This document shows, in pieces, positions 15,827 through 64,000 of a stretch of DNA of 64,000 nt. The first letter of the stretch is position 1, and the number at the start of each line of letters is the position of its first letter. The translations under genes were made by a program, and so were the position numbers. The DNA lies in contig CBDUMN010000003.1 of assembly GCA_965368335.1 (NCBI GenBank), positions 1,586 to 65,585 of the forward strand, read 5' to 3'. The notes beneath the pieces were generated by a model. It was not told the origin of the DNA. It ran no database searches and was given only the letters and a program-made list of their open reading frames with translations. The stretch is from an uncultured Rhodospirillales bacterium (GTDB lineage: Bacteria > Pseudomonadota > Alphaproteobacteria > Rhodospirillales > JAPHRK01).

Positions 15827-15898
15827 TTTTTACACCACCGTCAGAATTAGGTTGGGCACCATACTCAGGCGTCCAAATAAAATACATGACTTCGGTCA

Positions 15899-15956
15899 GG
15901 CTCGCGAGCCCAAAAGTAACGGCAGCTTTATTTCATAAGGACTCTCTTAAGGACTC
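15899..15956. promoter_or_regulatory. candidate operator elements upstream of the glycan operon
   Basis: A perfect 12-bp palindrome GGCTCGCGAGCC (15899-15910) and the direct repeat TAAGGACTC-TCT-TAAGGACTC (15936-15956) lie 58-115 bp upstream of the GTG at 16014. Confidence 0.2.
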
Positions 15957-16013
15957 GGGATCAATACTGTGCGTTGAAATTGGACCGGTTTATTTGCAGG
16001 GATTTGTTCAACC

Positions 16014-17024
16014 GTGAGCGCGCCTAAAAAAGTCATCGTCACCGGAGGGGCTGGGTTTATCGGCAGCCATCTCACCGAACGCCTAATCAATGACGGGCAC
16101 GCGGTTTCGGTGATCGATAATTTTTATATTGGCCGCGAGGAAAACATCGCACATCTGATGGAAACCGGCCGCCTCAACATTCACAAGGCCGATATCGCCG
16201 ATCTGGCAACCATTAAGCCGCTTTTTGAAGGTGTTGATTGGGTTTTTCACCTTGCCGCTATGGCCGATATCGTGCCCTCGATCCAAATGCCCCTGCCATA
16301 CCATAGGGCTAACGTCGATGGCACCATTGCCATTCTCGAAGCAGCCCGAACGGGGGGCGCTAAGCGCTTCGTCTACGCGGCCTCATCTTCCTGCTACGGC
16401 ATTCCAGATGAGTACCCGACCAAGGAAACGGCCGATATACGCCCCATGTACCCCTACGCATTGACCAAATACGTCGGTGAGGAATACGTGCGCCATTGGA
16501 ATCAAACCTATGGCCTGCCGACAGTTTGCCTAAGGCTGTTCAATGTTTATGGGCCACGCGCTCGGACCACAGGCACTTACGGGGCGGTTTTCGGCGTTTT
16601 TCTCGCTCAGAAACTAGCTGGCGAGCCTTTTACCGTCGTCGGAGACGGCAAGCAGACCCGTGACTTCACCTTTGTTACCGATGTTGCAGACGCCTTTGTC
16701 GCTGCCGCCCGGTCCAACCTCGACGGCGAGGTGATGAACGTCGGATCGGACAACACCTATTCGGTCAATCGCTTGGTTGAGCTGCTTGGCGGCGAAGTGA
16801 CCTATATCCCTAAACGCCCCGGCGAACCTGATTGCACCTACGCCGACACCTCACGGATCAAGGAAATGCTCGGCTGGAAGCCTCGGGTAACCTTCGAACA
16901 AGGGGTTTCCGTTATGCTAGAAAACATCGACCATTGGCGCACCGCGCCAGTTTGGACCGTCGATCAGATCGAAGAAGCAACAGCCGACTGGTTCAAATAC
17001 CTAAGCGATGGCGAGTCGTCCTAG
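16014..17024 (+). CDS. NAD-dependent sugar-nucleotide epimerase/dehydratase (extended SDR)
   Basis: GGAGFIGSH Rossmann motif and YALTK catalytic YxxxK. Length and pattern resemble UDP-hexose 4-epimerase or decarboxylase-type SDRs. Confidence 0.85.
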
Positions 17025-17059
17025 AAAAGGGCGAAACAAATGAGGAGAAGCCTCGCATT

Positions 17060-18616
17060 ATGACTGATAAGGACAATTCTGGCGGCAACCCACTGCTAAA
17101 CAAGCTCAAAACTCTCGAAGAGTTAGGCGTCATTTCCGATAAGGCGCGCAAAGACGGCAAGACCGTGGTGCTCGCACATGGCACATTTGACCTCTTGCAT
17201 ATCGGACATCTTCGGCATTTGCGGCTCGCCAAACGCGAAGGCGATATCCTGATCGTTACCATCACTGCCGACGCTCATGTCAATAAAGGGCCCGGTCGGC
17301 CGGTTTTCGCCGAGCAGATGCGCGCCGAAATGCTAGCCGCCATCGAATGCATCGATTATGTCGGCATCAACGACGGCCCCAAGGCGCTAGAAGTTATTCA
17401 GGCGGTGAAACCCAGCAAATACGTCAAGGGCTCCGACTACAAGAATGCCCAAGACGATGTGACGGGCGGCATCGTCGAAGAACGAGCCGCCGTTGAAGAA
17501 CATGGCGGTGAGTTGGTGTTTACCGACGAAATAACCTTCAGTTCCTCTTCTCTGATCAACCGCCACCTGGCAGTCTTCGATCCGACTCTGGACGAGTATC
17601 TGGAAGCCCAACGTTCAAAAGGTATTCTCGATCAACTCACCGAACTGATCGATAAGGTCAAGAACTACCGTATCCTGATGATTGGCGACGCCATCATTGA
17701 CGATTACGTTTATGTTTCCGCTCTCGGCAAGTCGCCGAAAGAACATATGATCGCCACTCTATTCGAAGACCGGGAGGTTTTTGCAGGCGGCGTTTTCGCA
17801 GCGGCAAACCATGTGGCCGATTTTTGCAAAGAGGTGGAAATCGTCACCACCTTGGGCGAAGGCTGCGAATACGAAAAAATGATCCGAGGCGCGCTACGGC
17901 CCAACGTGACCTTAAATGCTTTTTACCGGGAAAATGCGCCAACCACCCGCAAGACCCGCTTCATCGACCGCTCATATCTGCGCAAGATGTTCGAGGTCTA
18001 CGATATGGATGACACCCCGACAGACGTAACGCTTGAACGTGTCATCGACCGGATGATTTTACAGCGCGCCAGCGATTTCGACATGGTGATCGTTACCGAC
18101 TTCGGCCACGGTCTGATGACGCCCACCATGATCGCTTCACTGGAGCGCACCGCCAAATTCTTAGCCGTCAATACCCAGTCCAACAGCGCCAACCTGGGCT
18201 TCAACCTGATCACCAAGTATCCGCGAACCGACTATATCTGCATTGACGCACCCGAAGCCCGACTGGCTACCGGAGATCGACGCAGCGACATCGAAGACAT
18301 CGCCTCAAGAGCCCTGCCGGAACGTATCAGTTGCCCGAAACTGATCGTTACCCACGGCAAGAACGGCTGCATCGGCTACGAACACAAGTCTCAGGTGGCC
18401 CATGTTCCGGCCTTCACCAAAACAGTGGTCGATACGGTGGGCGCGGGCGACGCCTTTTTCGCCGTCACAGCCCCTCTGGCGGCAGCGGGCGGCAAGGTGG
18501 ATCAATTGGCCTTTATCGGTAATGCCGCCGGAGCAATCAAGGTGGGTATCGTCGGACACCGGAATTCGGTCGAAAAGATATCCGTGCTAAAGTTCCTCAC
18601 CACCCTGCTCAAGTAG
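17060..18616 (+). CDS. bifunctional nucleotidyltransferase (N-terminal) / PfkB-family sugar kinase (C-terminal), a domain-inverted HldE-like enzyme
   Basis: The N-terminal cytidylyltransferase-like HxGH motif (GTFDLLHIGHLRHL) resembles HldE domain II. The C-terminal PfkB/ribokinase signature is DTVGAGDAFFA. ATG 17060 is used because the 16832 ORF start lies inside the previous gene. Confidence 0.8.
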   Translation: MTDKDNSGGNPLLNKLKTLEELGVISDKARKDGKTVVLAHGTFDLLHIGHLRHLRLAKREGDILIVTITADAHVNKGPGRPVFAEQMRAEMLAAIECIDYVGINDGPKALEVIQAVKPSKYVKGSDYKNAQDDVTGGIVEERAAVEEHGGELVFTDEITFSSSSLINRHLAVFDPTLDEYLEAQRSKGILDQLTELIDKVKNYRILMIGDAIIDDYVYVSALGKSPKEHMIATLFEDREVFAGGVFAAANHVADFCKEVEIVTTLGEGCEYEKMIRGALRPNVTLNAFYRENAPTTRKTRFIDRSYLRKMFEVYDMDDTPTDVTLERVIDRMILQRASDFDMVIVTDFGHGLMTPTMIASLERTAKFLAVNTQSNSANLGFNLITKYPRTDYICIDAPEARLATGDRRSDIEDIASRALPERISCPKLIVTHGKNGCIGYEHKSQVAHVPAFTKTVVDTVGAGDAFFAVTAPLAAAGGKVDQLAFIGNAAGAIKVGIVGHRNSVEKISVLKFLTTLLK

Positions 18617-18626
18617 GAGGGGCTGA

Positions 18627-19232
18627 ATGACCAACCAAATCTTCAATCAATATCTCAAAACCCTGGCAGCCTGCCTAAGGGATTCCGAAGCCAGTACGCA
18701 AGATGGCGCACCCATGGAGATGGGAGACGCCATGGATTGGATCACCAACACAGCTAAAGCCGCCCATGAGCGGGGAAACAAGATGATGTTCGTCGGCAAC
18801 GGCGGGTCGTCGTCCATTTCCAGCCATCTTTCAGTGGATTTCGCCAAGAACGGCGGCATGCGGGCGATGACCGTTACCGATGCACCGATGCTCACTTGCC
18901 TGGGAAACGACCTGGGCTACGAGAATGTCTACGCCAAACCGGTCGAAATGTACGGCACGGCGGGCGACATGCTGGTCGCTATTTCCAGTTCCGGCGGCTC
19001 AGCCAATATTTTGAACGCCGTCGCCAAGGCGCGCGATATCGGCGCAAGCGTTCTGACTTTAAGCGGGTTCAAACCGGACAACCCCCTGCGCAGGTCCGGC
19101 GATGTGAACCTTTATGTCCCCTCTTACGAATACGGCTTCGTTGAAACAGCCCATACGGCCCTGCTCCACGCAGCGCTCGATCTAAGCATGGGCTGGACCG
19201 AGGAAGACGGCCTTTGGGAAAGAAAACAATGA
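18627..19232 (+). CDS. gmhA: SIS-domain phosphoheptose isomerase (GmhA-like)
   Basis: FVGNGGSSSISSHLSVDF and LVAISSSGGSANILNAV motifs. The ~200-aa size is typical of sedoheptulose-7-phosphate isomerase. Confidence 0.8.
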   Translation: MTNQIFNQYLKTLAACLRDSEASTQDGAPMEMGDAMDWITNTAKAAHERGNKMMFVGNGGSSSISSHLSVDFAKNGGMRAMTVTDAPMLTCLGNDLGYENVYAKPVEMYGTAGDMLVAISSSGGSANILNAVAKARDIGASVLTLSGFKPDNPLRRSGDVNLYVPSYEYGFVETAHTALLHAALDLSMGWTEEDGLWERKQ

Positions 19233-20233
19233 GCAATAAAAAAATCTGGAACGTCATGGTAACCGGCGGCGCCGGTTATGTTGGCTCCTCCCTGGTCCCC
19301 AAGCTTTTGGAAGAAGGTCACGGGGTCACGGTCCTCGATCTCTATCTCTATGGCGACGATATCTTTGAGGATCACCGCGACAACCCAAGACTACGTGAGG
19401 TTAAGGGCGACCTACGTGACATCGCAACCGTACGCAACGCCTTGAAGGGCTGCGATGCTGTCATTCATCTGGCCTGTATCTCAAACGATCCCTCCTACGA
19501 CCTCAATCCAGACCTTGGCAAATCGATCAACTACGACGCTTTTAGGCCGCTGGTTCGCGCCTCCAAAGAAGCAGGCGTTAAACGTTTTATCTATGCCTCA
19601 TCCTCATCGGTTTATGGCATCAAGGACGAAGCCCAGGTTACCGAAGACCTGCCGCTGGAGCCTTTGACCGACTACTCCAAGTTCAAAGCTCTCTGCGAAG
19701 AAGAGCTGGAGGAAGAACGCGAACCGGGTTTCGCCACGCTGGTTATCCGTCCTTCGACCGTCTGCGGCTACGCTCCCCGCCTGAGGCTCGACCTGACGGT
19801 CAATATCCTGACCAACCACGCCATCAACAAAGGCAAAATCACCGTATTCGGAGGCGCCCAGAAACGCCCCAACATTCATATCGACGATATGGTCGGCCTT
19901 TATCTTTTCGTGTTGCAGCAAGACGACGAGAAGATTGACGGCAAAATCTTCAATGCGGGATATGAAAACTTCACCGTCATGGAAATCGCCGAGATGGTGC
20001 GTGACGCCCTTGGGGGCGACATCGGCATTGATGTGACGCCCACCGACGACAACCGCTCCTATCATGTTTCATCCGACAAGATGAAAAAGGAACTGGGGTT
20101 CATGCCGCAGCATACGATTCTCGATGCGGTCAAGGAGCTGAAAGCAGCCTTTGAGGCAGGCAAGGTGCCGAACTCCATGGATGACCCTATCTATTTCAAC
20201 ATCAAGCTCATGCAGGACGTTGACCTGAAGTAA
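19229..20233 (+). CDS. NAD-dependent epimerase/dehydratase (extended SDR)
   Basis: TGGAGYVGS Rossmann motif and YSKFK YxxxK. ATG 19229 overlaps the gmhA-like stop (ATGA). The TTG at 19214 is less likely. Confidence 0.85.
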   Translation: MSNKKIWNVMVTGGAGYVGSSLVPKLLEEGHGVTVLDLYLYGDDIFEDHRDNPRLREVKGDLRDIATVRNALKGCDAVIHLACISNDPSYDLNPDLGKSINYDAFRPLVRASKEAGVKRFIYASSSSVYGIKDEAQVTEDLPLEPLTDYSKFKALCEEELEEEREPGFATLVIRPSTVCGYAPRLRLDLTVNILTNHAINKGKITVFGGAQKRPNIHIDDMVGLYLFVLQQDDEKIDGKIFNAGYENFTVMEIAEMVRDALGGDIGIDVTPTDDNRSYHVSSDKMKKELGFMPQHTILDAVKELKAAFEAGKVPNSMDDPIYFNIKLMQDVDLK

Positions 20234-20234
20234 C

Positions 20235-20852
20235 ATGCGGATTGGCATCGACTTCGACAACACCATCGCAAGCTACGACGCAGCTTTCCTCGCCGCGGCC
20301 CGAAACCAGGGCTTGATCGAAGAAAGCTTCACCGGAGGAAAGGCCGCGGTGCGCGACGCGATGCGAAGCCTCCAAGACGGTGAACGGAAATGGCAGACCC
20401 TTCAGGGCCGCGTCTATGGCGCTTTCATGGAACAGGCGGCCCTGATCCCCGGCGTGGCCGAGTTTCTGACAAAATGCAATAGGGCCCTGCTGGATGTTTT
20501 TATCGTCAGCCATAAGACCGAGTTCGGTCATTTCGACCCGGAGAAAGTCAACCTGCGCGACGCAGCCATGGCCTGGATGCACAAGCAGGGTTTCTTCGAC
20601 CCAGACAGGTTCAATCTTTCACCGCTCAATATTTACTTCGAGAGCACCCGCGCCGAGAAGTTGGCCCGCATCGGGGCGCTGGAACTCGATCTGTTTATCG
20701 ACGATCTACCGGAAGTGCTATCCGATCCAGACTTCCCAGACGGTCCTCAAAAGGTGCTCTACGATCCCGATGACATTGGCGCTGAACTACCATACGACAG
20801 GATCGCCCATTGGAACGTCTTAACCCAGGGAGTGTTCGATGGCGCCGCGTGA
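20235..20852 (+). CDS. HAD-superfamily hydrolase (putative sugar phosphatase, GmhB-analogous role inferred)
   Basis: N-terminal HAD motif I (IGIDFDNTIA) and a late acidic motif (LFIDDL). The role is inferred only from pathway context. Confidence 0.5.
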   Translation: MRIGIDFDNTIASYDAAFLAAARNQGLIEESFTGGKAAVRDAMRSLQDGERKWQTLQGRVYGAFMEQAALIPGVAEFLTKCNRALLDVFIVSHKTEFGHFDPEKVNLRDAAMAWMHKQGFFDPDRFNLSPLNIYFESTRAEKLARIGALELDLFIDDLPEVLSDPDFPDGPQKVLYDPDDIGAELPYDRIAHWNVLTQGVFDGAA

Positions 20853-21858
20853 GTATTCCCATCATACGGTTCGCGAGATCGGCGAAACATTAAGCGGCGA
20901 AGTCCTGCTCGATGTGGTTCACACGCGTCCCGGCGGCAACAACCGGATTTTTCAGCTCATCGGTGACAATCAGTCGTTTGCCTTAAAATTCTATCCAGCC
21001 CAGGACGAAGACCCTCGCGACCGACTGGGCAACGAATATGTCTTCCTCGATTTCCTTAAAAACTGCGGCATCCAACATGTGCCGGAGCCAATCATCCGCG
21101 ACGACACCAATTCCTGCGCCCTGTATAGCTGGGTTGAAGGCGAGGCTGTCGGCGAAGCGACGGATAAAGACGTTGAAGCGCTGGCTTGGTTTCTCATCGG
21201 TCTACAGCCTTTGAAACGTAAGCCGGAGGCCACACGGATTAACCCAGCATCCGCCGCCTGCCCGGCTCCCGATGACGCCTTCAAGCAACTGCACCAACGG
21301 CTTGAGTGCTTGAAAGAGGCTGGAAGCGAGCACCCTAGTCTCCATGAATTCCTCGAAAATGATTTCAAGCCCAAGGCTGAAGAGGTGACCGAACAAGCCC
21401 GGACGGCACTACAAGCCAGTGGAATCAACCCGGAGCGGTCGATGGCAGCAGAAAAACTCGCCATCAGCCCGTCCGATTTCGGCTTTCATAACGCTCTTCG
21501 CAATGAAAACGGCGGTTTGAGTTTTGTCGACTTCGAGTATGCCGGGTGGGATGATCCGGTAAAAGCCGTTGCGGACGCCATGCTGCATCCCGGCAGTGGA
21601 ATGAGCGAGGCACAGGCCGAACATTTCCGGGCTAAGATGTTTCCGGTTTTTGCAATCGATCCCAAGTTTGAAGAACGATTTAACGCACTCTACCCGGTCT
21701 ATGCCCTGATCTGGTGCCTCATCATTCTCAATGAATTTTTACCCGAACGCTGGACCCGTCGCCGCCTCGCCGGACAAGAGGCCGATCTGGCAACGATCCA
21801 GGACAGACAACTTGAGAAGGCCGCAACTTTGCTGACAAGGATTGCCCATGCCGCTTAA
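20839..21858 (+). CDS. APH/choline-kinase-family phosphotransferase
   Basis: Brenner/APH motif region SPSDFGFHNALRNENGGLSFVDFEYAGWDDPVKAVAD. It overlaps the HAD gene by 14 nt. Confidence 0.65.
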   Translation: MAPREYSHHTVREIGETLSGEVLLDVVHTRPGGNNRIFQLIGDNQSFALKFYPAQDEDPRDRLGNEYVFLDFLKNCGIQHVPEPIIRDDTNSCALYSWVEGEAVGEATDKDVEALAWFLIGLQPLKRKPEATRINPASAACPAPDDAFKQLHQRLECLKEAGSEHPSLHEFLENDFKPKAEEVTEQARTALQASGINPERSMAAEKLAISPSDFGFHNALRNENGGLSFVDFEYAGWDDPVKAVADAMLHPGSGMSEAQAEHFRAKMFPVFAIDPKFEERFNALYPVYALIWCLIILNEFLPERWTRRRLAGQEADLATIQDRQLEKAATLLTRIAHAA

Positions 21859-22693
21859 CCCGCCTTCGGGGGCCGAGCCCTTAGCCATGCCGCTCGACGA
21901 ACGATCCAAACATCTTCGCCGCTTAGCGCTTGGCTCCATGCTCTCGGCTGGACGCGGCCACTTGGGTCCAGCCATGAGTCTGATCGAAATTCTGCGCGTC
22001 CTCTATGACGACATCCTCCGCTATAAACCAGACAATCCTAAATGGGCCGGGCGAGACCGCTGCATTCTTTCCAAAGGCCATGGCTGCTTGGCGCTCTATG
22101 CCATTCTGGCCGACAAAGGTTTCTTCCCGGAAAGCGAATTGGCCAAGTTTTGCGCTTTCGATGGGTTGCTGGGCGGCCATCCGGAAGTGCTCGCCCCCGG
22201 TGTCGAGGCCAGCACAGGCGCACTAGGACACGGACTTTCCATCGGCGTCGGCATGGCGTTGGCCAATCGGATGAAAAAGCGTGACGGCAAGGTGGTCGTC
22301 GTGATGGGCGATGGCGAAATCAACGAAGGGTCCTGCTGGGAAGCAGCCATGGCGGCAGCCAAGCACGGGCTCGGCAATCTGACCGCCATCATCGACCATA
22401 ACAAAATCCAGTCCTACGGTCCGGTCAATGGGGTCCAGCCTCTCGAACCCCTGGCCGATAAATGGAGGGCCTTCGGCTTCGCCGTCGAGGAAGTGAATGG
22501 TCACGATGTGGCGGCCCTGCAAGAAACTTTAAAACGGCTACCCTTCACTTCGGACCGTCCCAGTGCGCTGATTTGTCATACGGTCAAAGGCAAGGGCATT
22601 CCACCCGCCGAAAACAATCCCACCTGGCACCACAAAAACAAGCTAAAGGATGAGGAACTCGCCCCCATCCGCGAAGCGCTTGGAGAGGGCTGA
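21842..22693 (+). CDS. transketolase, N-terminal (ThDP-binding) subunit
   Basis: GHLGPAMSLIEILRVLY, KGHGCLALYAILA and MGDGEINEGSCWEAAMAAAKHGLGNL motifs of split transketolases. A possible later start lies at 21887. Confidence 0.9.
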   Translation: MPMPLNPPSGAEPLAMPLDERSKHLRRLALGSMLSAGRGHLGPAMSLIEILRVLYDDILRYKPDNPKWAGRDRCILSKGHGCLALYAILADKGFFPESELAKFCAFDGLLGGHPEVLAPGVEASTGALGHGLSIGVGMALANRMKKRDGKVVVVMGDGEINEGSCWEAAMAAAKHGLGNLTAIIDHNKIQSYGPVNGVQPLEPLADKWRAFGFAVEEVNGHDVAALQETLKRLPFTSDRPSALICHTVKGKGIPPAENNPTWHHKNKLKDEELAPIREALGEG

Positions 22694-22697
22694 GACA

Positions 22698-23624
22698 ATG
22701 CGGAAAACAGCGCTCAACATGGTTCACGAACTGGCCCGCCAGGACGAGCGGGTGGTCTATATCGGCTCGGACCCCGGCCCCGGAACGCTTGACGAAATGC
22801 GCGAGGAATTCCCCGACCGTTTCTTCATCGAAGGAATTGCCGAAGCCAACGTGATCGGCATGGCTGCCGGGCTGGCCATGGAAGGTTATGTTCCCTACGT
22901 CAATACCATCGCCACCTTCCTGACCCGGCGTTGTTACGAACAACTGGCTATCGACCTTTGCCTGCATAAGCTGCCCGTCCGGCTGATCGGCAACGGCGGT
23001 GGGCTGGTCTATGCTCCCTTGGGCCCGACCCATCAGGCCATTGAAGACATAGCGATCACCCGCGCTCTGCCGAACATGACAGTCATCGCCCCGGCCGATG
23101 CCGACGAAATGCGCCGCATGGTTCCCCAGACTCTCGATGTGGAAGGGCCGGTTTATATCCGCCTCGCCAAAGGACATGACGAGATCGTCACCCAGGAAGA
23201 CCATGGCAACACCCTGGGCAAGGCGATTATGCACAGAGAACCGGGCGACGCGCTGCTCGTTACCACGGGTATTATGCTCCAGCGGGGCTTGAAAGCGGCC
23301 GAACTGCTGGCCGAAGATAGTATCGAGTGTGGCCTGCTCCATTGCCACACCATCAAACCCTTGGATGTCGAAACCCTGGCCCATGCCGCCCGTCGCGCCA
23401 AGGTCGTCATCACGGCCGAGGAACATCTAGTCTCCGGCGGCCTGGGCGGCGCGGTTCTTGAGGCTCTTTCCGACGCCATGCCGGGCGCCATGCCACCGAT
23501 TATCCGCAAGGGCATTCCCGATAAATTCACCCATCACTATGGCTCCCAGGATCTCCTGCTGGAACACTACGGCCTGCAAGCCCCCGGATTGGCCCAAACC
23601 GTCAAAGACGCGCTGTCGAAATAG
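22698..23624 (+). CDS. transketolase, C-terminal (pyrimidine-binding) subunit
   Basis: FIEGIAEANVIGMAAGLAMEGYVPYVNTIATFL and GPTHQAIEDIAITRALPNMTVIAPAD. ATG 22698 lies 2 nt after the upstream stop. Confidence 0.9.
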   Translation: MRKTALNMVHELARQDERVVYIGSDPGPGTLDEMREEFPDRFFIEGIAEANVIGMAAGLAMEGYVPYVNTIATFLTRRCYEQLAIDLCLHKLPVRLIGNGGGLVYAPLGPTHQAIEDIAITRALPNMTVIAPADADEMRRMVPQTLDVEGPVYIRLAKGHDEIVTQEDHGNTLGKAIMHREPGDALLVTTGIMLQRGLKAAELLAEDSIECGLLHCHTIKPLDVETLAHAARRAKVVITAEEHLVSGGLGGAVLEALSDAMPGAMPPIIRKGIPDKFTHHYGSQDLLLEHYGLQAPGLAQTVKDALSK

Positions 23625-23635
23625 GAACCTGCCCA

Positions 23636-24745
23636 ATGGTCGATAACGTTCGATATTCATACCTGCCCCAACAGTTCGCCGAAATCGACGACCTGTGGGA
23701 AGAGTTGAAAGCCTTCGTCCCCACCGGAGATTTCACCTTGGGCAAGCCGCTCACCGAATTCGAACAGCGTTTCGCCAAGCTGATCGGCTCTAAACATGCC
23801 ATTGGGGTCAATTCAGGCACCGACGCCATCAAGTTGGGGCTGAAAGCGCTCGGCGTCGGCTTCGGCGACGAAGTGATCACCACCGCAAATACCTTCATCG
23901 CCACCGTCGGCGCTATCGCCGAAATCGGCGCAACGCCGGTATTCGTCGATTGCGACGACACCTTTTGCATGAATGTCGGTCAGGTGGAAAGCACCGTCAC
24001 CGAGAAAACCAAGGCCATCGTGCCGGTCCATTTCACCGGCTATATGACCGACATGCGCAAACTCATGCCCATTGCCGAAAAGCACGGCCTTCCCATCGTC
24101 GAAGACGCCTGTCAGGGCATCCTCGCCGCCATCGAGGGGAAAAACGCCGGCACCTGGGGCCATACCGGAGCCTTTTCCCTCCATCCGTTGAAGAACCTCA
24201 ACGTCTGGTCTGACGGCGGCATTATCATCACCGACGACGACGAGCTGGACCGCAAACTACGGCTATTGCGCAATCACGGCATGAGAAACCGGGATGAAAT
24301 CGAACTCCTGGGCTATAACTCCAGGCTCGATACCATCCAGGCGGTGGTCGGCAACTGGCTGATCCCCCAAACCGAAGACATCGCCGCCAAGCGTATCGCC
24401 AATGCGGCCTATTATGACGATGCCTTCGGCGCGCTTTCGCAAATCCGTATCCCGCCGCGTCCCACCGATATGCGGCTGGTCTATCACCTCTATATCGTTT
24501 TCGCCGAAGACCGGGACGGCCTGTTGGAGCATTGCCTCAAAAAAGATATCGAAGCCAAAATCCACTATCCCATTCCACTCTATCAGCAGGATGGTCTGAA
24601 GCATCTGGGCTACACCCCGGGAGACTTCCCGGTCACTGATCGCCACACTCAGGAAATCATCACCTTCCCGGTCGATCAGCATATTTCGAAAGAAGAGATG
24701 GACTACGTGATCGCCACGGTTAAAGAGTACTATGGAGGCTCGTGA
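23636..24745 (+). CDS. DegT/DnrJ/EryC1/StrS-family sugar aminotransferase
   Basis: The family pattern GVNSGTDAIKLGLKALGVGFGDEVITTANTFIATVGAI, the SLHPLKNL lysine region, and LRNHG are present. Confidence 0.9.
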   Translation: MVDNVRYSYLPQQFAEIDDLWEELKAFVPTGDFTLGKPLTEFEQRFAKLIGSKHAIGVNSGTDAIKLGLKALGVGFGDEVITTANTFIATVGAIAEIGATPVFVDCDDTFCMNVGQVESTVTEKTKAIVPVHFTGYMTDMRKLMPIAEKHGLPIVEDACQGILAAIEGKNAGTWGHTGAFSLHPLKNLNVWSDGGIIITDDDELDRKLRLLRNHGMRNRDEIELLGYNSRLDTIQAVVGNWLIPQTEDIAAKRIANAAYYDDAFGALSQIRIPPRPTDMRLVYHLYIVFAEDRDGLLEHCLKKDIEAKIHYPIPLYQQDGLKHLGYTPGDFPVTDRHTQEIITFPVDQHISKEEMDYVIATVKEYYGGS

Positions 24746-26704: not shown

Positions 26705-26862
26705 ATATGAGAATCATTCACAAAACAATCGCTTTTTAAGCTTTTCTTGAGGGTTTTTGTGCCCATATAGAAGGCTGCGGTTTTTATCGGCACAAGCACA
26801 GCGCCGACAAGGAATAGGGCCTGGACAGAATATCCCGGCCATACGTGACCAGGAGTAACAGA

Positions 26863-30040: not shown

Positions 30041-30087
30041 TCATGCTGGTTGCCCGGCAAGACACTTTATTAAGTAAGGAGAGCTCT

Positions 30088-31480: not shown

Positions 31481-31498
31481 CTAGGGTCAGAACCCTAG
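31481..31498. terminator. short hairpin between convergent operons
   Basis: CTAGGGT-CAGA-ACCCTAG lies between the radical SAM stop (31467) and the galE-like stop, which it overlaps. No obvious U-tract. Confidence 0.35.
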
Positions 31499-42956: not shown

Positions 42957-43181
42957 AGGATTCTCCTCATTAGCCAGTTTCAAGGCTATCGACCGACCGT
43001 CAGTCATCCTTCTGGATATGAACCAGCCTTGAATCTTATGTTCCGGTATATGGTAAACCTAAAAATAGATATCAAGGCGGCGACAACGGAGTTGGCCGAT
43101 AGCTAGCGCCTGGCGGCCACCGCCGATCCAGACAAGCACAGAGTAGCTTAGCGACTCATTCTTGAGAGAATCTTAAAAGGC

Positions 43182-47101: not shown

Positions 47102-47180
47102 ACTGACACCCCTTCCTATTAATGCCGTGTCCGGCCCACCTGTTTCACTGGCCGTCACGATACGCCGCACGATGCGGGAT

Positions 47181-55546: not shown

Positions 55547-57515
55547 CCTCTATCTTATCACGCCCTTCCGCCATTTGCCCGAGTACGTTACGGGTATCAT
55601 CGACCATCAGCTCAACTTTTTCCTTATAGGCCCCCATAAAAAAGCGGAGGAAAGCCAAACGGTCGTCTTGGTTAGCGATCCGCGTTCCGGCAAAAGCCCC
55701 AACCCGGATCATTGATACCAAGCTTGATCTGATAATAGAGAGAATACCCCGGCAGGGGGCTTCCAGGCGATCACGGAGGGTGATAATCCGGTGATGAAAA
55801 TCCCAAAAACTTTCATCCTCCCCGAAAGCCTCATCCATCGCCTTGAGAAATTCGTCCTCAAAAAGATCACATTTGGCGACAAGGTCATCGAGATCAAGAC
55901 CCGACAAATATTCTCCAGCAGGAAATGAGGGTAACGTCTGTGCAATACGGTTGATTAGCTGGGCCTGATACCCTTCAGGTCCATGAAAGGTCAGAGCCGA
56001 CGCGGCTTTAGGGGCAGCTCCATCTATCTTTGCACCATCACTGCAATTGACAACTTTGACATCGGATCGCTGGCATAAAGGGCCAAAACTAGCCCGCGAC
56101 ATGTCCAAATACCATGTCGTTAAGGCCTCACCACCAAAGTTGGCGGGGACAACACGGTCAAACTCATTCTCTAATAGCTCAAAACTTTCGCCTTCAAGAT
56201 AATTGTCATAATCGTCTTCATAATAAATCGCTTCACCTGCATGGTGGCCATGCTCGGTCCGTCGCCCGCAGTCCACTCCAAAGAAATAGAAATTACGGAA
56301 CCCAACGCTCAGCATAGCGGCCATCGCCGAATTGGCGACAAGGGGGTCGGCCCCTAAAAGAGGCGCAAGCCCTCGATTGAGAGAGGCTGTACAGCTCAAC
56401 CCCGTACGATAATAAAACCATCTTTTGTCAAAAAGTTTTCCAGCTTCAGGGTTTACCGATGTTGAGGCCACATAGGTAATGGGTGAAAGATCGTACTTTT
56501 TCGAAAAATTCCTGAGGTTCTCGACCAAAGGCCATGAATTTTCATTTTCTCCATGAAAATCCGGAACAATTCCGTTTTTCAAAAGAATCCCTAGACTGCT
56601 TGTCCCACAAGAAAAAACGATGGCCTTATTGCGCCATTTTTTGACAACGTCCAAATCCTTATCCAACGACGGTCCAGAACCCACAATGAAGACGGGTTGC
56701 TCTCTCTGAACGACCGGTTTTCGCTGGAGAAAGGAAAGCGGAAAACGATGCAGATTGCCGTAGGAGTTTGTCATCATCAGCAATTCATCTTCATAAAAGC
56801 CAGAAGAGATATAACTGACTGCAATCCTTTCATTGAGCAATCTGCGGGCTTCAAGAAGCTCCCAAGAGGGGTAGTGTATATAGGCGTAAGATCCCTCGAT
56901 AAAAGTTTTCCCGTCATCCCAAATATACCGTTCAATACTACGCACGATAACGGCAGGCGGCGCCCCTACGATAAAGCGCACCTCCACTGACTGCGCGTCT
57001 GCCGCTTCAAAAAAATCCGCCCAGTCGAAGACCTCAAATGAAGCACGAAGCAAAGCCGGTTGCGGCTCAATAAGAACCATGACCTTCGCTTTGTTATTTT
57101 CAAGCAGCAGCTTTAGGTGATGCCCAAGGCCAATACCAAAGACAAAGCAAAAACCGATATCAACAAGAGGATGGGAACTGACTTCTTCCCCATAATCGTT
57201 GGCGATGTAATCCCTGACCTTCGAAAGTAGATCTTTTGATATGGGTGATAAATTGCAATAGGCGGGGCTGGCGAAACCAATGCGATCCGGATCGTCAAAA
57301 TAGTTTTCAACCTGTTTCTGACTGCAGCCGACAGCAGGTTCCTGATAAAGCAGAGTACCGCCGATACTTACATCGACGGCCTCCCCTTCTTCATAAACAA
57401 TCGATACATCCGGTGAGCGCCGTTCTTCCCCAAGACGCCAGAGGTCAGGAGATCGCGTTTGAAAAATTTGTCTGTTTTTTTCAAATAAAGTTAGGTCGCC
57501 AGCTTGATTGTTCAT
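55521..57515 (-). CDS. maf: motility accessory factor Maf, copy 2 (tandem paralogue)
   Basis: VFIVGSGPSLDKDLDVVKKWRNKAIVFSCGTSSLGILLKNGIVPDFHGENEN and FFGVDCG. It is collinear with copy 1 along the whole length. Confidence 0.85.
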   Translation of the reverse strand: MNNQAGDLTLFEKNRQIFQTRSPDLWRLGEERRSPDVSIVYEEGEAVDVSIGGTLLYQEPAVGCSQKQVENYFDDPDRIGFASPAYCNLSPISKDLLSKVRDYIANDYGEEVSSHPLVDIGFCFVFGIGLGHHLKLLLENNKAKVMVLIEPQPALLRASFEVFDWADFFEAADAQSVEVRFIVGAPPAVIVRSIERYIWDDGKTFIEGSYAYIHYPSWELLEARRLLNERIAVSYISSGFYEDELLMMTNSYGNLHRFPLSFLQRKPVVQREQPVFIVGSGPSLDKDLDVVKKWRNKAIVFSCGTSSLGILLKNGIVPDFHGENENSWPLVENLRNFSKKYDLSPITYVASTSVNPEAGKLFDKRWFYYRTGLSCTASLNRGLAPLLGADPLVANSAMAAMLSVGFRNFYFFGVDCGRRTEHGHHAGEAIYYEDDYDNYLEGESFELLENEFDRVVPANFGGEALTTWYLDMSRASFGPLCQRSDVKVVNCSDGAKIDGAAPKAASALTFHGPEGYQAQLINRIAQTLPSFPAGEYLSGLDLDDLVAKCDLFEDEFLKAMDEAFGEDESFWDFHHRIITLRDRLEAPCRGILSIIRSSLVSMIRVGAFAGTRIANQDDRLAFLRFFMGAYKEKVELMVDDTRNVLGQMAEGRDKIEGVAGVGPE

Positions 57516-59497: not shown

Positions 59498-59938
59498 TCA
59501 CGCGGTTATTTCACCATTGCCTAGCCCCTGGGGGACCTCCGCCTCTTCCTCTTTTTCTTTCTCTTTGGAAGAGCCGGGCAGCGGCGTCCTCAACCCAGCG
59601 GCCAACTCCCGGTTGATATTGATCAACACATCAAGCTTCTTATGATCCGGGTTCGCAATGAGATCCATGGAATATTTATCGATAAAATTCGCAAGAGAAA
59701 TGCCATTATTCCGGATATCATCCGGCAAGGGGCACTCTGGGCTGAGCAATTCCGCTTGCAGAATAGTCCAAAGCTGCCAATTAATGCGAACTGCAGCCAG
59801 AACAACCTCTGTCTCACCGCTTTCTTTCGCCGCTTTAAGCCGCAAGGCTGCTTGGGTTAATCCCCAGGCCTCAACCTCCCTCGGGTTCCCCGGAGCCGGG
59901 GGCGTCTCGTAGTTTTTCAGCAAGTTGTTCGTTGACAT
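59498..59938 (-). CDS. flaF: flagellar biosynthesis regulator FlaF
   Basis: LKNYETPPAPGNPREVEAWGLTQAALRL...NWQLWTILQAELLSPECPLPDDIRNNGISLANFI...LININRELAAGL matches the FlaF family pattern. Confidence 0.85.
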   Translation of the reverse strand: MSTNNLLKNYETPPAPGNPREVEAWGLTQAALRLKAAKESGETEVVLAAVRINWQLWTILQAELLSPECPLPDDIRNNGISLANFIDKYSMDLIANPDHKKLDVLININRELAAGLRTPLPGSSKEKEKEEEAEVPQGLGNGEITA

Positions 59939-60320
59939 GCATAAAAACCTTACTTTCGTGGGAAATAAGTCTCTGCGCTTTCTTCAAAGCCTTATAAAGT
60001 TCCCGTTTTTCAACCAGTCGCCATAACTCATCACCAATCGGCTGGGCGCTTGGTGCAGCCTTTAGGTAATCTGACAGGAATTCATTAAAGCGCCGTAAAT
60101 TGTCGGTGAATTCTGATGGGAAAAGGTAGAGACACTGCAAGGCGTAATAGGCCCGTGCGGCCGGGGTGACGGCGTCTTCCGGCGAAAGAACATCATTATC
60201 ACGCAATAGCGAGGCATCGTTCTTCAGAAGCAAGGATACATTACTGCTTCCGGTATTTTCGATAACCGCCCCGTTGATGATAATCTGCTGACCTTTTTTC
60301 AAATGAATTTTAAGCGGCAT
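59871..60320 (-). CDS. flbT: flagellin translational repressor FlbT
   Basis: MPLKIHLKKGQQIIINGAVIENTGSSNVSLLLKNDASLLRDNDVL...ARAYYALQCLYL is the conserved FlbT N-terminal pattern. Confidence 0.9.
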   Translation of the reverse strand: MPLKIHLKKGQQIIINGAVIENTGSSNVSLLLKNDASLLRDNDVLSPEDAVTPAARAYYALQCLYLFPSEFTDNLRRFNEFLSDYLKAAPSAQPIGDELWRLVEKRELYKALKKAQRLISHESKVFMHVNEQLAEKLRDAPGSGEPEGG

Positions 60321-60331
60321 GAACGACTTCC

Positions 60332-60371: not shown

Positions 60372-60393
60372 CCACTTTAAGAAAAGGAATGTC

Positions 60394-61311: not shown

Positions 61312-61382
61312 TAGGAATTCTCCCTTTCTAGGTGAGACTGTACAGTTTGCGCTTTTCTAGCGCTTGCACACTGTATCATGCT

Positions 61383-61431
61383 GAAAATGAAAAATCCATT
61401 AACCTTATGGGCGTGGGGATATTTTCATTTC
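61383..61431. promoter_or_regulatory. imperfect inverted repeat upstream of flagellin
   Basis: GAAAATGAAAAATCC (61383-61397) and GGATATTTTCATTTC (61417-61431) form a ~15-bp imperfect inverted repeat with a 19-bp spacer, 72-120 bp upstream of the flagellin ATG. Confidence 0.25.
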
Positions 61432-61451
61432 CCGACTACGTTCCAGCGCCT

Positions 61452-62606
61452 CTAATCCAATGATAATATCTTGATAATCTTAGATATTTCACTCGACAAA
61501 AGAGTTGAAGACGAGGGCAGGCAAAGAGCTGATTTCTGAATTTTTTCAGCATTGTCTCCACCTAAAACAACCGAATCTTGATGCGCCGGACTTCTGTGAA
61601 GCGGTTGCCATAGGGGTCTTGTCTCAATCCCCTCTTGCCGCAGTTTTTCTGCAATTTCTATTCGAGAATTATTTTTGATGAGAACCGCAGAAAGCCAGTT
61701 GACGGCCTCTACATTTTTGGGAATCGGCATAAAGTTTAGAAAATCAACGGTTTTGCAGAATTCCGCATACTGCGCGGCAATGTCACGGCGGGCGGCAATA
61801 AATTGATCTATCCGCTCCATCTGGGCACAGCCCACCGCCGCCTGAATATTGGTCAGACGGTAATTGAACCCAATATCATCATGGATAGATTCAATGGGAT
61901 CGGCTTTCGCCTGGGTGGATAGGTGCGCAGCTTTTTCGAACCATTGGGTGTCGGGCGTAACGACCATCCCACCACCACCACTCGTCACGAGCTTATTACC
62001 GTTGAAACTGAAACAACCGATATCACCCAGCGTTCCCAGGAATCGACCTTCATATCGCGCTCCCAAACCTTCCGTCGCGTCCTCGATCAACGGAACGCCC
62101 AAGCTGCGCGTTACATCCAAAAGCGGCGGCAGGTTGACGGCGCTGCCAAGGATATGAACGGGGAGGACGGCGCCAATGCGTCGCCCCGTCTGTTTATTGA
62201 ACACGCCATCGGCACGCTTTTCACACCCGTTTTTTAGAAAATCGACAGCAAGCCCAACGTCCATCTGCCAATCATTCGGGTCGGCATCGACAAAAACCGG
62301 ATAGGCCCCAACATAGCGAATGGCATTGGCGGGCGCGATGAATGAAAGAGTGGAGACCAAAACCTCGTCACCGGGCCTAACGCCGGCCACGATCAATGCC
62401 AAATGCAGAGCCGCCGTGCCGGTCGCCGTAGCGACCGAGTGAGGCGCACCGACAAAATCAGCCACTATTTTTTCAAACCGACCGACAAAAGGTCCGGCGC
62501 TCGAAACCCAATTTGTGGAAATGCACTCAGCCAGATACGCCGCTTCATTACCCGATAGGTCTGGAGCGCTCAGCGGTATGAATGACTCTTTCGCGTCAGA
62601 TGGCAT
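61452..62606 (-). CDS. DegT-family aminotransferase, LegC-like
   Basis: IPLSAPDLSGNEAAYLAECISTNWVSSAGPFVGRFE and TGTAALHLALIVAGVRPGDEVLVSTLSFIAPANAI. Start ATG 62606 overlaps the upstream stop by 11 nt. The ORF also extends to an upstream ATG at 62651. Confidence 0.8.
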   Translation of the reverse strand: MPSDAKESFIPLSAPDLSGNEAAYLAECISTNWVSSAGPFVGRFEKIVADFVGAPHSVATATGTAALHLALIVAGVRPGDEVLVSTLSFIAPANAIRYVGAYPVFVDADPNDWQMDVGLAVDFLKNGCEKRADGVFNKQTGRRIGAVLPVHILGSAVNLPPLLDVTRSLGVPLIEDATEGLGARYEGRFLGTLGDIGCFSFNGNKLVTSGGGGMVVTPDTQWFEKAAHLSTQAKADPIESIHDDIGFNYRLTNIQAAVGCAQMERIDQFIAARRDIAAQYAEFCKTVDFLNFMPIPKNVEAVNWLSAVLIKNNSRIEIAEKLRQEGIETRPLWQPLHRSPAHQDSVVLGGDNAEKIQKSALCLPSSSTLLSSEISKIIKILSLD

Positions 62607-63579
62607 AGGTGTCCCGCCGGAAACGATCCCGGTTGGCCTCAATCCAGGCAATTGTTTTTTTCAACCCCTCCTCCAGAGCAACCTCCGGCTCCCAGCCGAT
62701 CACCTCTTTTGCCAAACGGTTATCAGAGAGCAGACGCTCAACCTCGCTAGCCGACGGGCGAACACGTTGCCGGTCTGTTTCGCTTGTCAGCTCCACCCCC
62801 ATCAACCTGCCAATCAAATCCCGAAGATCGCCAATACTGATCTCACGCCCCGTCCCGAGGTTGACCGTTCGGCCTTCGCACCCAACCGCTTCCCCTGCTT
62901 TTAAAAAGCCTCTGACCGTATCATCGACCAGCGTCAAATCACGGGTCGGTGAAAGACTTCCAAGCTTAACCACATTGCCATCCAGCGCCTGGGATATAAT
63001 CGTCGGAATGACAGCTCGAGCCGACTGGCGGGGGCCGTAGGTATTGAACGGTCGCACCGTAACCACAGGCGTTTCAAAGGCGCAATGGTAGGACTCGGCG
63101 ACCTTATCGGCTGCAATCTTGCTAGCCGAGTAAGGCGATTGCCCCTGTAAAGGATGATCCTCGTCAATCGGCACTCTTTTAGCCGTCCCATAAACTTCGC
63201 TGGTCGAAGTATGAACCACGCGCCGCGTCCCAAAATCACGCGCCGCCTGCAACAGGTTCATCGTTCCTTCTACATTGGTTCGGAGGTAAGAGCGCGGTGC
63301 ATGATAGGAATAAGGGATGGTAATGAGCGCCGCCAAATGGAACGCCGTATCAATCCCCTCCATGGCGCGCCGGACAGATTCCGGGTCGGCAATATCGCCG
63401 GGATAGATCTCCATCTCCTTGGCCAGCTTGCTGTCATCAAGCCAACCCCAGGTTCCTGCGCCATTGTAATGGACCATGGCCCGCACATCCGCGCCTTCTT
63501 CGGTCAACTTCTCGGCCAAATGGCTTCCAATGAATCCCCCCGCCCCGGTCACCAGAACTTTTTTGCCTTGCCATGTCAT
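62596..63579 (-). CDS. NAD-dependent sugar-nucleotide 4,6-dehydratase, LegB-like
   Basis: KKVLVTGAGGFIGSHLAEKL...VHYNGAGTWGWLDD...FHLAALITIPYSYHAPRSYLRTNVEGTMNLL follows the LegB-type pattern rather than PseB-type TGGTGSFG. ATG 63579 overlaps the upstream stop (ATGA). Confidence 0.8.
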   Translation of the reverse strand: MTWQGKKVLVTGAGGFIGSHLAEKLTEEGADVRAMVHYNGAGTWGWLDDSKLAKEMEIYPGDIADPESVRRAMEGIDTAFHLAALITIPYSYHAPRSYLRTNVEGTMNLLQAARDFGTRRVVHTSTSEVYGTAKRVPIDEDHPLQGQSPYSASKIAADKVAESYHCAFETPVVTVRPFNTYGPRQSARAVIPTIISQALDGNVVKLGSLSPTRDLTLVDDTVRGFLKAGEAVGCEGRTVNLGTGREISIGDLRDLIGRLMGVELTSETDRQRVRPSASEVERLLSDNRLAKEVIGWEPEVALEEGLKKTIAWIEANRDRFRRDTYAI

Positions 63580-64000
63580 TTTTTCAACTTCCCCTGCCCC
63601 GCATCGGCCTGAGCCTGAGCGTAATCGCCCAACTGCCCGATATCCATCCAATACTCATGAATGGGAAAGCTGCTCACCATCAAACCGTCAGTCATGATTT
63701 CATCGATGAGATCGGTCATATCGAGCCGCTGCCCTTTAGGTATCCGCTTCAAAACCTCCGGCTCCAGCAAATAGATCCCAGCATTGATAAAGAAAGAAAG
63801 GGACGGTTTTTCCGAAAGCTTTGAGACCCTGACACCATCAGCTTCAACCACCCCAAAGGGCACGGAGATATCATACTGACGAACCCCGACGGTCAGGTGA
63901 GAGGCATGCTCCCGATGAAAATCAAGCATCGCTCCAAAATCGACCGACGTCAGAATATCGCCATTGATAACCAGAACGGGTTCGTCGCGTGGCGGCAAAT
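63576..64000 (-). CDS. sugar-phosphate nucleotidyltransferase, C-terminal part (PtmE-like context), N-terminus beyond the window
   Basis: NTP_transferase pattern VLVINGDILTSVDFGAMLDFHREH...PFGVV...INAGIYLLEPEVL...EYWMDIGQLGDY. The frame is open to the window end. Confidence 0.8.
   Translation of the reverse strand, partial: LPPRDEPVLVINGDILTSVDFGAMLDFHREHASHLTVGVRQYDISVPFGVVEADGVRVSKLSEKPSLSFFINAGIYLLEPEVLKRIPKGQRLDMTDLIDEIMTDGLMVSSFPIHEYWMDIGQLGDYAQAQADAGQGKLKK

Follow-up and report, generated by a model that had tools for sequence, protein, structure and literature searches.

What is so large a set of sugar genes doing inside a flagellar locus? In the 64,000-nucleotide stretch of contig CBDUMN010000003.1 from an uncultured Rhodospirillales bacterium (here called the window), 40 open reading frames (ORFs), none separated from the next by more than 320 bp, fill positions 16014 to 64000, downstream of flgE-flgI-flgK-flgL and a kinase gene, and the flagellin gene among them is flanked on both sides by genes for sugar biosynthesis and transfer. 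A preliminary description, made from the letters of the window, had proposed a sugar and transferase island lying between the flagellar genes plus a hemerythrin kinase on one side and flagellin on the other, and family searches bear out nearly every item that it listed. In our view, flagellin glycosylation is the likely function of the region taken as a whole; in each single module we have less confidence. The reading is drawn from the presence of flagellin, FlbT, FlaF, Maf proteins homologous to a solved structure, and transferases fused to tetratricopeptide repeats (TPR), together with the lack of any polytopic membrane ORF.

The island encodes dedicated flagellin glycosyltransferases, as its two Mafs are homologous to the solved Maf 5MU5 of M. 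magneticum, and the central region of the flagellin itself (residues 131 to 220) is 22% Ser plus Thr. FlaF is a flagellin secretion chaperone (PMC7591256). Maf A and Maf B are 39% identical, and Maf A is the better match in most related loci. Moreover, none of the 40 ORFs appears to encode a polytopic membrane protein, each having at most one or two weak hydrophobic segments, and none has a Pfam match to a flippase, polymerase, ABC exporter, or priming transferase. Within the window, then, the island has the cytoplasmic character of a flagellin island, without lipid-carrier or export machinery. A Maf alignment run against reference genomes gave 80 loci, mostly from Rhodospirillales and allies, and the content of these loci and of close relatives was determined by tblastn with all island proteins.

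For the recognition of flagellin by Maf proteins just two devices are on record, a TPR domain fused to the enzyme and the separate protein GlfM. The arrangement flaF-TPR/GT41-like gene-maf is a third candidate, and it occurs in cultured strains. The protein encoded between flaF and Maf A can be aligned over the whole catalytic domain of SPINDLY (SPY), and also with a bacterial OGT. Its family, TPR plus GT41-like proteins of about 640 amino acids, is present in 57 of the 79 nonduplicate Maf loci (for example L029:8001-9884 and L027:7975-9879, among L005-L060), and in these 57, flagellin (44 loci), FlbT (46), and FlaF (49) lie within 10 kb. Carriers include the cultured Terasakiella pusilla DSM 6293, in which the homolog, WP_028879189.1, is annotated as a hypothetical protein, Magnetospirillum sp. 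UT-4, and a Haematospirillum isolate. The flagellin-FlbT-FlaF-GT41-like neighborhood was absent beside maf in the Paramagnetospirillum loci L078, L082, and L069, which stand closest to the AMB-1 Maf known from experiment. From these sequences we propose that the protein is a flagellin-recognition adaptor, or a co-transferase that would not use a nucleoside diphosphate (NDP) sugar, and that the Mafs of this clade have in it a partner of their own.

By analogy with FlmG the partner could be an enzyme with an altered donor, such as a CMP-sugar, which has one phosphate, or it could present flagellin without catalysis. Mutation of SPY K665 abolishes activity (PMC9715652). Across the family the SPY N661 position is Ala or Val, Glu or Gln occupies the K665 position in 36 of 46 sequences (Glu in the window protein), and the H495 position is not conserved. 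Such replacement of the diphosphate-binding residues is what would be expected if the protein were a catalytically dead scaffold that presents flagellin to Maf, a TPR-in-trans analogue of the Maf-2/GlfM system. The scaffold reading also fits the fixed position of the gene, immediately upstream of the first maf in 47 of the 70 loci whose sequence extends far enough on that side (median gap between hits, 97 bp), and the Mafs themselves: Pfam finds Maf_flag10_N and MptE-like domains alone in both, with no C-terminal TPR domain of the Maf-1 type, and no gene of GlfM size (about 89 amino acids) lies beside them, as every ORF of at least 40 amino acids in 53.5 to 57.6 kb falls inside the maf genes. 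Residues N338, D355, T358, D369, D410, R517, and D534 of the C-terminal part, however, are kept in at least 80% of the 46 sequences, which indicates that the GT41-like domain is under constraint. Moreover, Pfam GT41 is still matched by 41 of the 46 (TPR families by 39), as would suit an enzyme of altered chemistry, and FlmG, with the same layout of TPR and GT-B domains, is an active pseudaminic/legionaminic acid (Pse/Leg) transferase. A dead scaffold seems to us the less probable outcome, though one to be taken seriously. Given the substitution of Glu or Gln for an essential lysine, the family would be either a new branch of GT41 with other donor chemistry or a pseudo-enzyme adaptor.

The pairing resembles known recognition systems in part. 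The flagellin glycosyltransferases described so far fall into just two classes, Maf and FlmG. Maf is missing from C. crescentus (PMC7591256), and flagellin is bound by the TPR domains of FlmG (PMC7591256) and of Maf-1 (10.1101/2023.12.03.569772). The locus shares with the Caulobacter/Brevundimonas FlmG system its FlbT and FlaF logic and a soluble protein of about 600 amino acids with N-terminal TPR and C-terminal GT-B domains, a likeness of domain layout by description which the window protein (TPR plus GT41 GT-B) shares. Here, in contrast, the protein is always paired with a Maf, and it is GT41-like with diphosphate-binding residues replaced. Searches with the single sequence and with a 46-sequence profile gave the same candidate pool, in which there was no named FlmG, and no link between FlmG and GT41 was found in the literature searched. 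Like Shewanella oneidensis, with its bipartite Maf-1 and tripartite Maf-2/GlfM systems, the island has two Mafs in one locus. The principle known there is that Maf depends on a helical module for binding flagellin, whether part of the enzyme or the product of a nearby gene. Its Mafs, however, lack the C-terminal TPR by Pfam and the neighboring 89-residue four-helix protein, and their companion is a TPR plus GT41-like protein encoded upstream rather than downstream of maf. The Maf of M. magneticum AMB-1, from the same broad bacterial group, is homologous over residues 13 to 517, but the last 140 or so residues of the window Maf are unaligned and loci of the Paramagnetospirillum type lack the core neighborhood.

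Downstream, the mafs are met after 11 bp by a convergent gene of 357 codons, which the preliminary description had called a flagellin-like orphan. Predicted structure agrees. The AlphaFold2 model (pLDDT 91) shows long helices at both termini and an inserted beta domain, and flagellins make up all of its top Foldseek matches in the PDB (best E = 2e-7, TM about 0.5). Profile-sequence comparison with flagellin gave a marginal 19% probability, and the relationship is therefore one of predicted fold. The family has 127 representatives in a 50%-identity library (E <= 0.001), nearly all of about 355 amino acids and none with a Pfam match, and it stands beside maf in 12 nonduplicate Maf loci. Magnetospirillum sp. 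UT-4 is one cultured strain that has a homolog. In Caulobacter, FljJ is a regulatory flagellin paralogue (PMC7591256). By analogy, the orphan may be a regulatory paralogue or a FlaY-like polymerization factor; we offer these as leads rather than as tests. Like the conserved partner of Maf, the orphan family gives a concrete lead that can be tested in cultured relatives. The predicted second FlaF was also upheld by Pfam. It has no BLASTP similarity to the first, recurs in about seven loci, and lies beside the NeuD-type acetyltransferase in L019 and L010.

What the Mafs transfer is suggested by two sets of nonulosonate genes. The island was said to run past flagellin with legB- and legC-like genes, and it does so for at least 9.6 kb beyond the window, as read on a contig that is 99.8% identical over the overlap (L092:1-9579). 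The LegB-like gene call (327 amino acids) was taken from independent contigs, and the gene cut by the window end is PtmE/LegX-like, encoding 366 to 381 amino acids and adjoining LegB in L091 and L092, with generic best NCBIfam matches, there being no model specific to LegX. LegX has a role in the legionaminic acid pathway, and Brevundimonas likewise has a Leg pathway with LegX (10.1101/2022.03.25.485807). Next come WbuX (above its cutoff), HisH, a WbuZ/HisF-like protein, a TPR-GT41 protein of 793 amino acids that is the third of the island, NeuC/LegG (432 bits; cutoff, 236), a canonical NeuB/LegI of 352 amino acids (NeuB_NnaB 425 bits; cutoff, 400), a short-chain dehydrogenase/reductase (SDR), and a protein whose Pfam CTP_transf_3 match alone makes it the likely LegF. 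By the NeuC and NeuB models, a Leg synthase cannot be told from a Neu synthase. The WbuX-HisH-WbuZ-like genes would probably give the legionaminic-type sugar an acetamidino modification. The preliminary description had also assigned the genes at 35.6 to 38.7 kb to the legionaminic pathway; since a canonical LegG/LegI set lies beyond the window, that NeuB fusion (334 bits to NeuB_NnaB; cutoff, 400) and its CMP-transferase are instead a second nonulosonate pair. Related loci have the unfused NeuB part alone. Two pairs and two Mafs fit an arrangement of one Maf per sugar, by analogy with C. jejuni and Shewanella.

What sugar the left end makes is a separate question. The other pathway of the preliminary description, of heptose type, is present as genes, and its first part (16014-23624: SDR, reversed HldE-like, SIS, SDR, HAD-like, APH, and split transketolase genes) is a conserved unit widespread in metagenomes, where a scan found more than 440 relatives of the HldE-like protein; neighborhoods were counted in the 76 best non-self loci (L104-L179). 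Homologs of the first SDR have 65 to 73% identity in 70 cassette loci, and the protein is below all NCBIfam equivalog cutoffs. The HldE-like protein, with a 518-amino-acid gene call taken from independent contigs and an HxGH motif read in the alignment, has its domains swapped relative to HldE, and rfaE domains I and II score about 108 to 110 bits each, below cutoff. For the SIS protein, TIGR00441 gmhA gives 89.9 bits (cutoff, 209). The HAD-like protein had no family match and is conserved in 25 cassette loci, and the split transketolase is a possible source of sedoheptulose-7-phosphate. Like the GmhA/HldE/GmhB/HldD pathway for ADP-heptose, the cassette has a SIS isomerase, PfkB and nucleotidyltransferase domains, a HAD-like motif, and SDRs, but it has a split transketolase, an APH-type kinase, and a DUF59-radical SAM gene as extras. 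Its gene set resembles the amino-heptose pathways of septacidin and hygromycin B. With its aminotransferases, the enzyme set suggests that the product may be a nucleotide-activated, aminated heptose derived from sedoheptulose-7-phosphate. That these are the housekeeping heptose genes of lipopolysaccharide (LPS) is a reading that we rejected, disfavored as it is by scores far below the equivalog cutoffs of the ADP-L-glycero-D-manno-heptose pathway (gmhA, 90 against 209 bits; HldE, 152 against 521; heptose epimerase, 110 against 275; no GmhB match) and by the reversed domain order.

Hints that such a heptose could reach flagellin come from two Maf loci. L053, from a Hyphomicrobiales metagenome-assembled genome, reads FlbT-FlaF-GT41-like-Maf-TPR protein-SDR-HldE-like-SDR-TPR protein, and in L060 two SDRs lie beside the GT41-like gene and maf; homologs of the second cassette SDR (53 to 69% identity) adjoin maf in both. 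The C-terminal domain of the final TPR protein (L053:10258-11586) shares 37% identity (E = 1e-50) with the C-terminal domain of a protein that has PF01075, Glyco_transf_9, among its Pfam matches. It had no sequence match in the PDB, and the GT9 label comes from the 37% identity and a reading of motifs. Glyco_transf_9 is the heptosyltransferase family. The gene string thus hints at protein heptosylation of flagellin, which would be new if true, as no report of heptose on flagellin was found in the literature searched. We lean toward the view that the cassette serves flagellin in the source organism.

Several observations pull the other way and bring in a different account, in which the locus is of mixed use: the segment from about 46 to 64 kb and beyond would be for flagellin, and the cassette, perhaps with GT61, GT4, GalE, and tailoring genes, would make a precursor or glycan for LPS, capsule, or another surface polymer, exported by genes located elsewhere. 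At the window locus it is position that ties the cassette to the flagellum. For the whole, flagellin glycosylation is the best reading, as the preliminary description had it. In none of the 76 other cassette loci is Maf, flagellin, FlbT, or FlaF found within 10 kb. Their recurrent neighbors are instead an ABC-2 permease (10 loci), an ABC ATPase (10), GT2 (12), and a large methyltransferase protein (24), and the ABC/GT2 context typifies exported polysaccharides. The GmhA-, HldE-, HldD-, and RmlD-like proteins are all below equivalog cutoffs, so that heptose is itself a provisional name. Further, O-antigen loci are just as typical a place for GT4, GalE, and RmlD, the canonical GT41 protein could be a general transferase of protein O-GlcNAc type, and exporters could sit elsewhere in the genome, of which 64 kb and about 10 kb more were seen. 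The GC content of the segments differs (about 0.55 at 16 to 27 kb; 0.47 to 0.50 at 28 to 60 kb; the drop lies near 28000), and a kinase gene sits between flgL and the cassette. An island that serves both flagellin and O-antigen is known in A. caviae (PMC7874193). Mixed use is nevertheless the less probable account, at perhaps one chance in a few, for none of the 40 ORFs resembles an integral membrane protein, and a sister lineage also joins the end with kinase and cassette and the end with flagellin and Maf on one contig. Cassette genes stand directly beside maf in L053 and L060, with the TPR-fused GT9-like gene next in L053. Finally, the transferase that directly follows the cassette is TPR fused, the architecture of protein-directed transferases.

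The window comes from a metagenomic assembly, and with the GC shift near 28 kb it might be a chimera that joins unrelated loci. That idea is rejected and is effectively refuted by independent contigs and the sister lineage. Window proteins are found identical on contigs of several JGI and ENA metagenomes, with gene order repeated in several independent samples and assemblies, and one contig of 102 kb holds both the left cassette in the same order and the flagellin end (99.8% identity over the 11.4 kb compared). In the sister lineage, a single contig of 109 kb has the kinase and cassette at one end and Leg-flagellin-FlbT-FlaF-GT41-like-Maf-Maf-orphan-GT41 at the other. Its interior exceeds that of the window by about 20 kb and is different at the edges that were sampled, and the portion that differs between the sister lineages is the low-GC interior. 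Fixed ends and a differing interior are the pattern of a hypervariable island. Synteny among relatives, raised in the preliminary description, holds for the core and both island ends, and the cassette is nonflagellar in the 76 loci. The nearest relatives of the source organism, itself known solely from metagenomes, are Rhodospirillales and Magnetovibrionaceae-like genomes. In all, the island is at least about 58 kb with about 50 genes, and its right boundary lies beyond the sequence seen (the window and about 10 kb). There were no signs of mobility in the window, in that no tRNA genes and no integrase or transposase family matches were found.

The interior holds transferases and tailoring enzymes in number. 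At least nine candidate transferases had been listed, and two Mafs, two TPR-GT41 proteins, TPR-GT61, GT4, and a TIGR04372-family protein stand, the last (47249-48766) being the only one of three called poorly defined to gain support. No family could be assigned to those at 32469, 34422, and 49086. No relatives of the protein at 32469-33692 were present among the loci fetched; that at 49086-50276 is conserved at 65 to 68% identity in L005 and L007, and its single-sequence model (pLDDT 46) has moderately confident helices in residues 1 to 120 alone. The TPR-GT41 protein at 50358-52280 retains the catalytic lysine of GT41 (QTYKID). If they act as proposed, soluble TPR-guided transferases from several families, gathered in a single locus, would be of use in protein glycoengineering. 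As for tailoring, four methyltransferase-type proteins and a 2-oxoglutarate dioxygenase had been counted; those with TylF and Methyltransf_23 matches hold, and the one at 40130 and the PhyH-type dioxygenase fall below cutoff.

Three radical SAM enzymes had been named as well, and Pfam places them at 26845, 30043, and 41439. The best NCBIfam matches of the B12-binding enzyme (41439-43007) are B12-radical SAM methyltransferase families, all below cutoff. Those of the SPASM enzyme at 30043-31467 are the peptide and cofactor maturases GeoRSP, NirJ2, PqqE, and PapB, and its gene lies between protein-directed TPR transferases, as might be expected if one or both of the non-B12 enzymes, especially this one, modified the flagellin polypeptide in the manner of a peptide maturase rather than a sugar. 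The matches, however, all lie well below cutoff, equivalog cutoffs included; five other, nonflagellar loci also have the DUF59-radical SAM gene behind the sugar cassette; and radical SAM enzymes that act on sugars, such as DesII, BtrN, and GenK, are well known. Modification of the polypeptide is accordingly improbable, and the radical SAM enzymes are better read as tailoring sugars.

How would the parts work together? The donors, acceptors, and products below are those that we infer from the gene families and their order. Flagellin would be O-glycosylated in the cytoplasm and then exported with the help of FlaF. Each Maf paralogue would transfer one CMP-activated nonulosonic acid. The first may be of legionaminic type, probably acetamidino modified, made by LegX-LegB-LegC, the NeuD-type acetyltransferase, NeuC/LegG, NeuB/LegI, a CMP-transferase, and the WbuX-HisH-WbuZ-like proteins; the second may come from the CBS-NeuB-TIM fusion and its CMP-transferase at 35.6 to 38.7 kb. 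The TPR plus GT41-like protein between flaF and maf would be the dedicated partner of Maf, as flagellin adaptor or non-NDP co-transferase. Soluble TPR-fused transferases (GT41, GT61, and possibly TIGR04372) and GT4 might then add sugars to flagellin directly or extend the glycan, with donors that could include UDP-hexoses formed via GalE and a nucleotide-activated sugar of amino- or deoxy-heptose type from the cassette at 16 to 26.7 kb. The methyltransferases, the B12-radical SAM enzyme, and the two other radical SAM enzymes would tailor the sugars. In its strongest form the proposal is a third architecture of flagellin sialylation, in which Maf acts solely in concert with a GT41-like partner that lacks the NDP-binding residues, combined with a heptose-containing composite glycan built by TPR-guided transferases of four or five families and with a flagellin-fold accessory adapted to the modified filament. 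So complete a combination is speculative, and we would not expect all of it to hold.

How new is the island? Large and complex flagellin islands are already known from C. jejuni and Aeromonas group II, and the present one is an unusually elaborate member of the kind. The C. jejuni flagellin glycosylation locus is a large block beside the flagellin genes. It too has more than one nonulosonate pathway, with GDP-GlcNAc-based Leg synthesis through PtmE/LegX, LegB, LegC, LegG, LegI, and LegF and with an acetamidino branch, and several Maf paralogues whose donor preferences are thought to differ (10.1101/2023.12.03.569772). C. jejuni also makes several sugars resembling sialic acid. Its Mafs, however, are numerous (10.1101/2023.12.03.569772) rather than two, the present source is alphaproteobacterial, and the descriptions of that locus that were consulted make no mention of TPR-GT41, GT61, GT4, TIGR04372, a heptose-type cassette, radical SAM enzymes, or FlbT/FlaF. 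For Aeromonas, comparison is with the available portion of one account (PMC7874193). In group II islands (A. piscicola AH-3), Maf and nonulosonate genes stand with extra transferases and tailoring genes, the product is heterogeneous, the content varies with strain, and a heptasaccharide is built on Maf-linked pseudaminic acid by Maf and many glycosyltransferases. In contrast to the present island, the fragment described is up to 27 kb against at least 58 kb, the extension transferase Fgi-1 is a plain GT2 with no TPR domain reported in that portion, the nonulosonate is pseudaminic rather than legionaminic acid, and the genes as described there include no radical SAM enzymes or heptose-type cassette.

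The preliminary description held that known islands usually use one transferase type, which is too simple in view of Aeromonas group II, the C. jejuni Mafs, and the TPR plus GT41-like/maf pairs that are usual in this bacterial group, in 47 of 70 loci. Its other statement of novelty fares better, as the combination of elements was not found in the literature searched. Four features distinguish the island: the fixed pair of Maf and GT41-like protein, the many soluble TPR-fused transferases of different families, the heptose-type cassette with three radical SAM enzymes, and the flagellin-fold accessory. No description of these four was found in the same literature.

Features of the window, with positions counted from its first nucleotide, and the matches on which each assignment is based (bit scores are given against the model's cutoff)
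Feature	Position	Strand	Basis
FlgE	6431-7708		Pfam
FlgK	9945-12200		Pfam
FlgL-like	12088-13752		Pfam, weak flagellin N/C match
PAS-HisKA-HATPase-hemerythrin kinase	13730-15826	-	Pfam
SDR, 4,6-dehydratase/epimerase type, first cassette gene	16014-17024	+	Pfam Epimerase, GDP_Man_Dehyd E = 1e-62
HldE-like, 518 aa, N-terminal nucleotidyltransferase and C-terminal PfkB kinase	17060-18616	+	Pfam CTP_transf_like, PfkB
SIS-domain sugar-phosphate isomerase, GmhA-like	18627-19232	+	Pfam SIS_2
Second SDR, epimerase/reductase	19214-20233	+	Pfam Epimerase E = 7e-41
Putative HAD-type phosphatase, possible GmhB analogue	20235-20852	+	N-terminal DxDxT motif MRIGIDFDNTIA, read from sequence
APH-family kinase, possibly sugar kinase	20839-21858	+	Pfam APH E = 1e-10; 26 cassette loci
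Split transketolase, N and C subunits	21842-23624	+	Pfam Transketolase_N, Transket_pyr, Transketolase_C; 24-27 cassette loci
Two DegT/PseC-type sugar aminotransferases	23636-25853	+	Pfam DegT E = 1e-101, 2e-109; 38% mutual identity
RmlD-type 4-ketoreductase	25862-26704	+	Pfam RmlD_sub_bind E = 1.5e-59; TIGR01214 186 bits vs 224
Radical SAM with N-terminal FeS_assembly_P (DUF59)	26845-28230	+	Pfam
TPR + GT61 glycosyltransferase	28259-30040	+	Pfam Glyco_transf_61 E = 1.6e-26, TPR families
Radical SAM/SPASM enzyme	30043-31467	+	Pfam Radical_SAM, Fer4_12, SPASM; under all NCBIfam equivalog cutoffs
UDP-glucose 4-epimerase GalE	31495-32472	-	TIGR01179 394 bits vs 262
Soluble protein without family, 407 aa	32469-33692	-	Capsule_synth E = 0.15, chance level
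TylF-type sugar O-methyltransferase	33711-34367	-	Pfam TylF E = 1.3e-25
Protein of 405 aa	34422-35639	-	no family match
CBS-NeuB-SAF-xylose-isomerase-like TIM fusion, 747 aa	35662-37905	-	Pfam NeuB E = 4e-84, SAF, CBS, AP_endonuc_2
CMP-nonulosonate synthetase, PseF/NeuA-like	37947-38675	-	Pfam CTP_transf_3; TIGR03584 PseF 136 bits vs 206
GT4 glycosyltransferase	38833-40116	+	Pfam Glycos_transf_1 E = 2e-12
Probable methyltransferase, weak	40130-41368	-	Methyltransf_31 25.7 bits vs 27; TIGR04290 E = 5e-10, below cutoff
B12-binding radical SAM, candidate C-methyltransferase	41439-43007	-	Pfam B12-binding, Radical_SAM
Possible PhyH-type dioxygenase, weak	43182-44072	-	PhyH E = 4.4e-4, 21 bits vs 22
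Protein of 590 aa, N-terminal SAM methyltransferase domain	44069-45841	-	Pfam Methyltransf_23 E = 8e-21
NeuD/PglB-type N-acetyltransferase, LegH candidate	46014-46694	-	TIGR03570 212 bits vs 161
Second, divergent FlaF paralogue	46757-47170	-	Pfam FlaF E = 1e-9
TIGR04372-family glycosyltransferase, N-terminal half without assignment	47249-48766	-	TIGR04372 189 bits vs 45, residues 278-480
Protein of 396 aa, N-terminal helical repeats	49086-50276	+	no family or PDB match
TPR + canonical GT41 (OGT-like)	50358-52280	-	Pfam GT41 E = 5e-98; human OGT E = 8e-138
Flagellin-fold protein, 357 aa, family without name	52479-53552	+	AlphaFold2 and Foldseek; no Pfam match
Maf B, second copy	53564-55546	-	Pfam Maf_flag10_N, MptE-like; 5MU5 E = 6e-54
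Maf A, widely conserved copy	55521-57515	-	Pfam Maf_flag10_N, MptE-like
TPR + GT41-like, 644 aa, without GT41 diphosphate-binding residues	57556-59490	-	SPINDLY E = 7e-22, residues 161-644
FlaF	59498-59938	-	Pfam FlaF E = 8e-25
FlbT	59871-60320	-	Pfam FlbT E = 2e-31
Flagellin, 305 aa	60394-61311	-	Pfam Flagellin_N, Flagellin_C
LegC-family aminotransferase	61452-62651	-	TIGR04181 432 bits vs 420
LegB-like NAD-dependent 4,6-dehydratase	62596-63579	-	TIGR04180 446 bits vs 475, slightly under
CBS + nucleotidyltransferase, PtmE/LegX-like, C-terminal part	63576-64000, runs off window	-	Pfam NTP_transferase

Pfam also finds FlgI, a rod-binding protein, and FlgN in the flagellar locus that takes up the left 16 kb of the window. 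No sigma-54 site was seen ahead of the flagellin gene, and matches across the window do not exceed chance expectation. Thus, the promoter scan gives no support for coregulation of the island. An exact sigma-54 consensus (TGGCACCGGACTTGCA) does lie 64 bp ahead of flgI (7892-7907), and a site with one mismatch precedes flgE (6389-6404). Just upstream of the flagellar genes are genes for a GAF histidine kinase (2719-4245) and a DksA-family zinc-finger protein (5143-5577).

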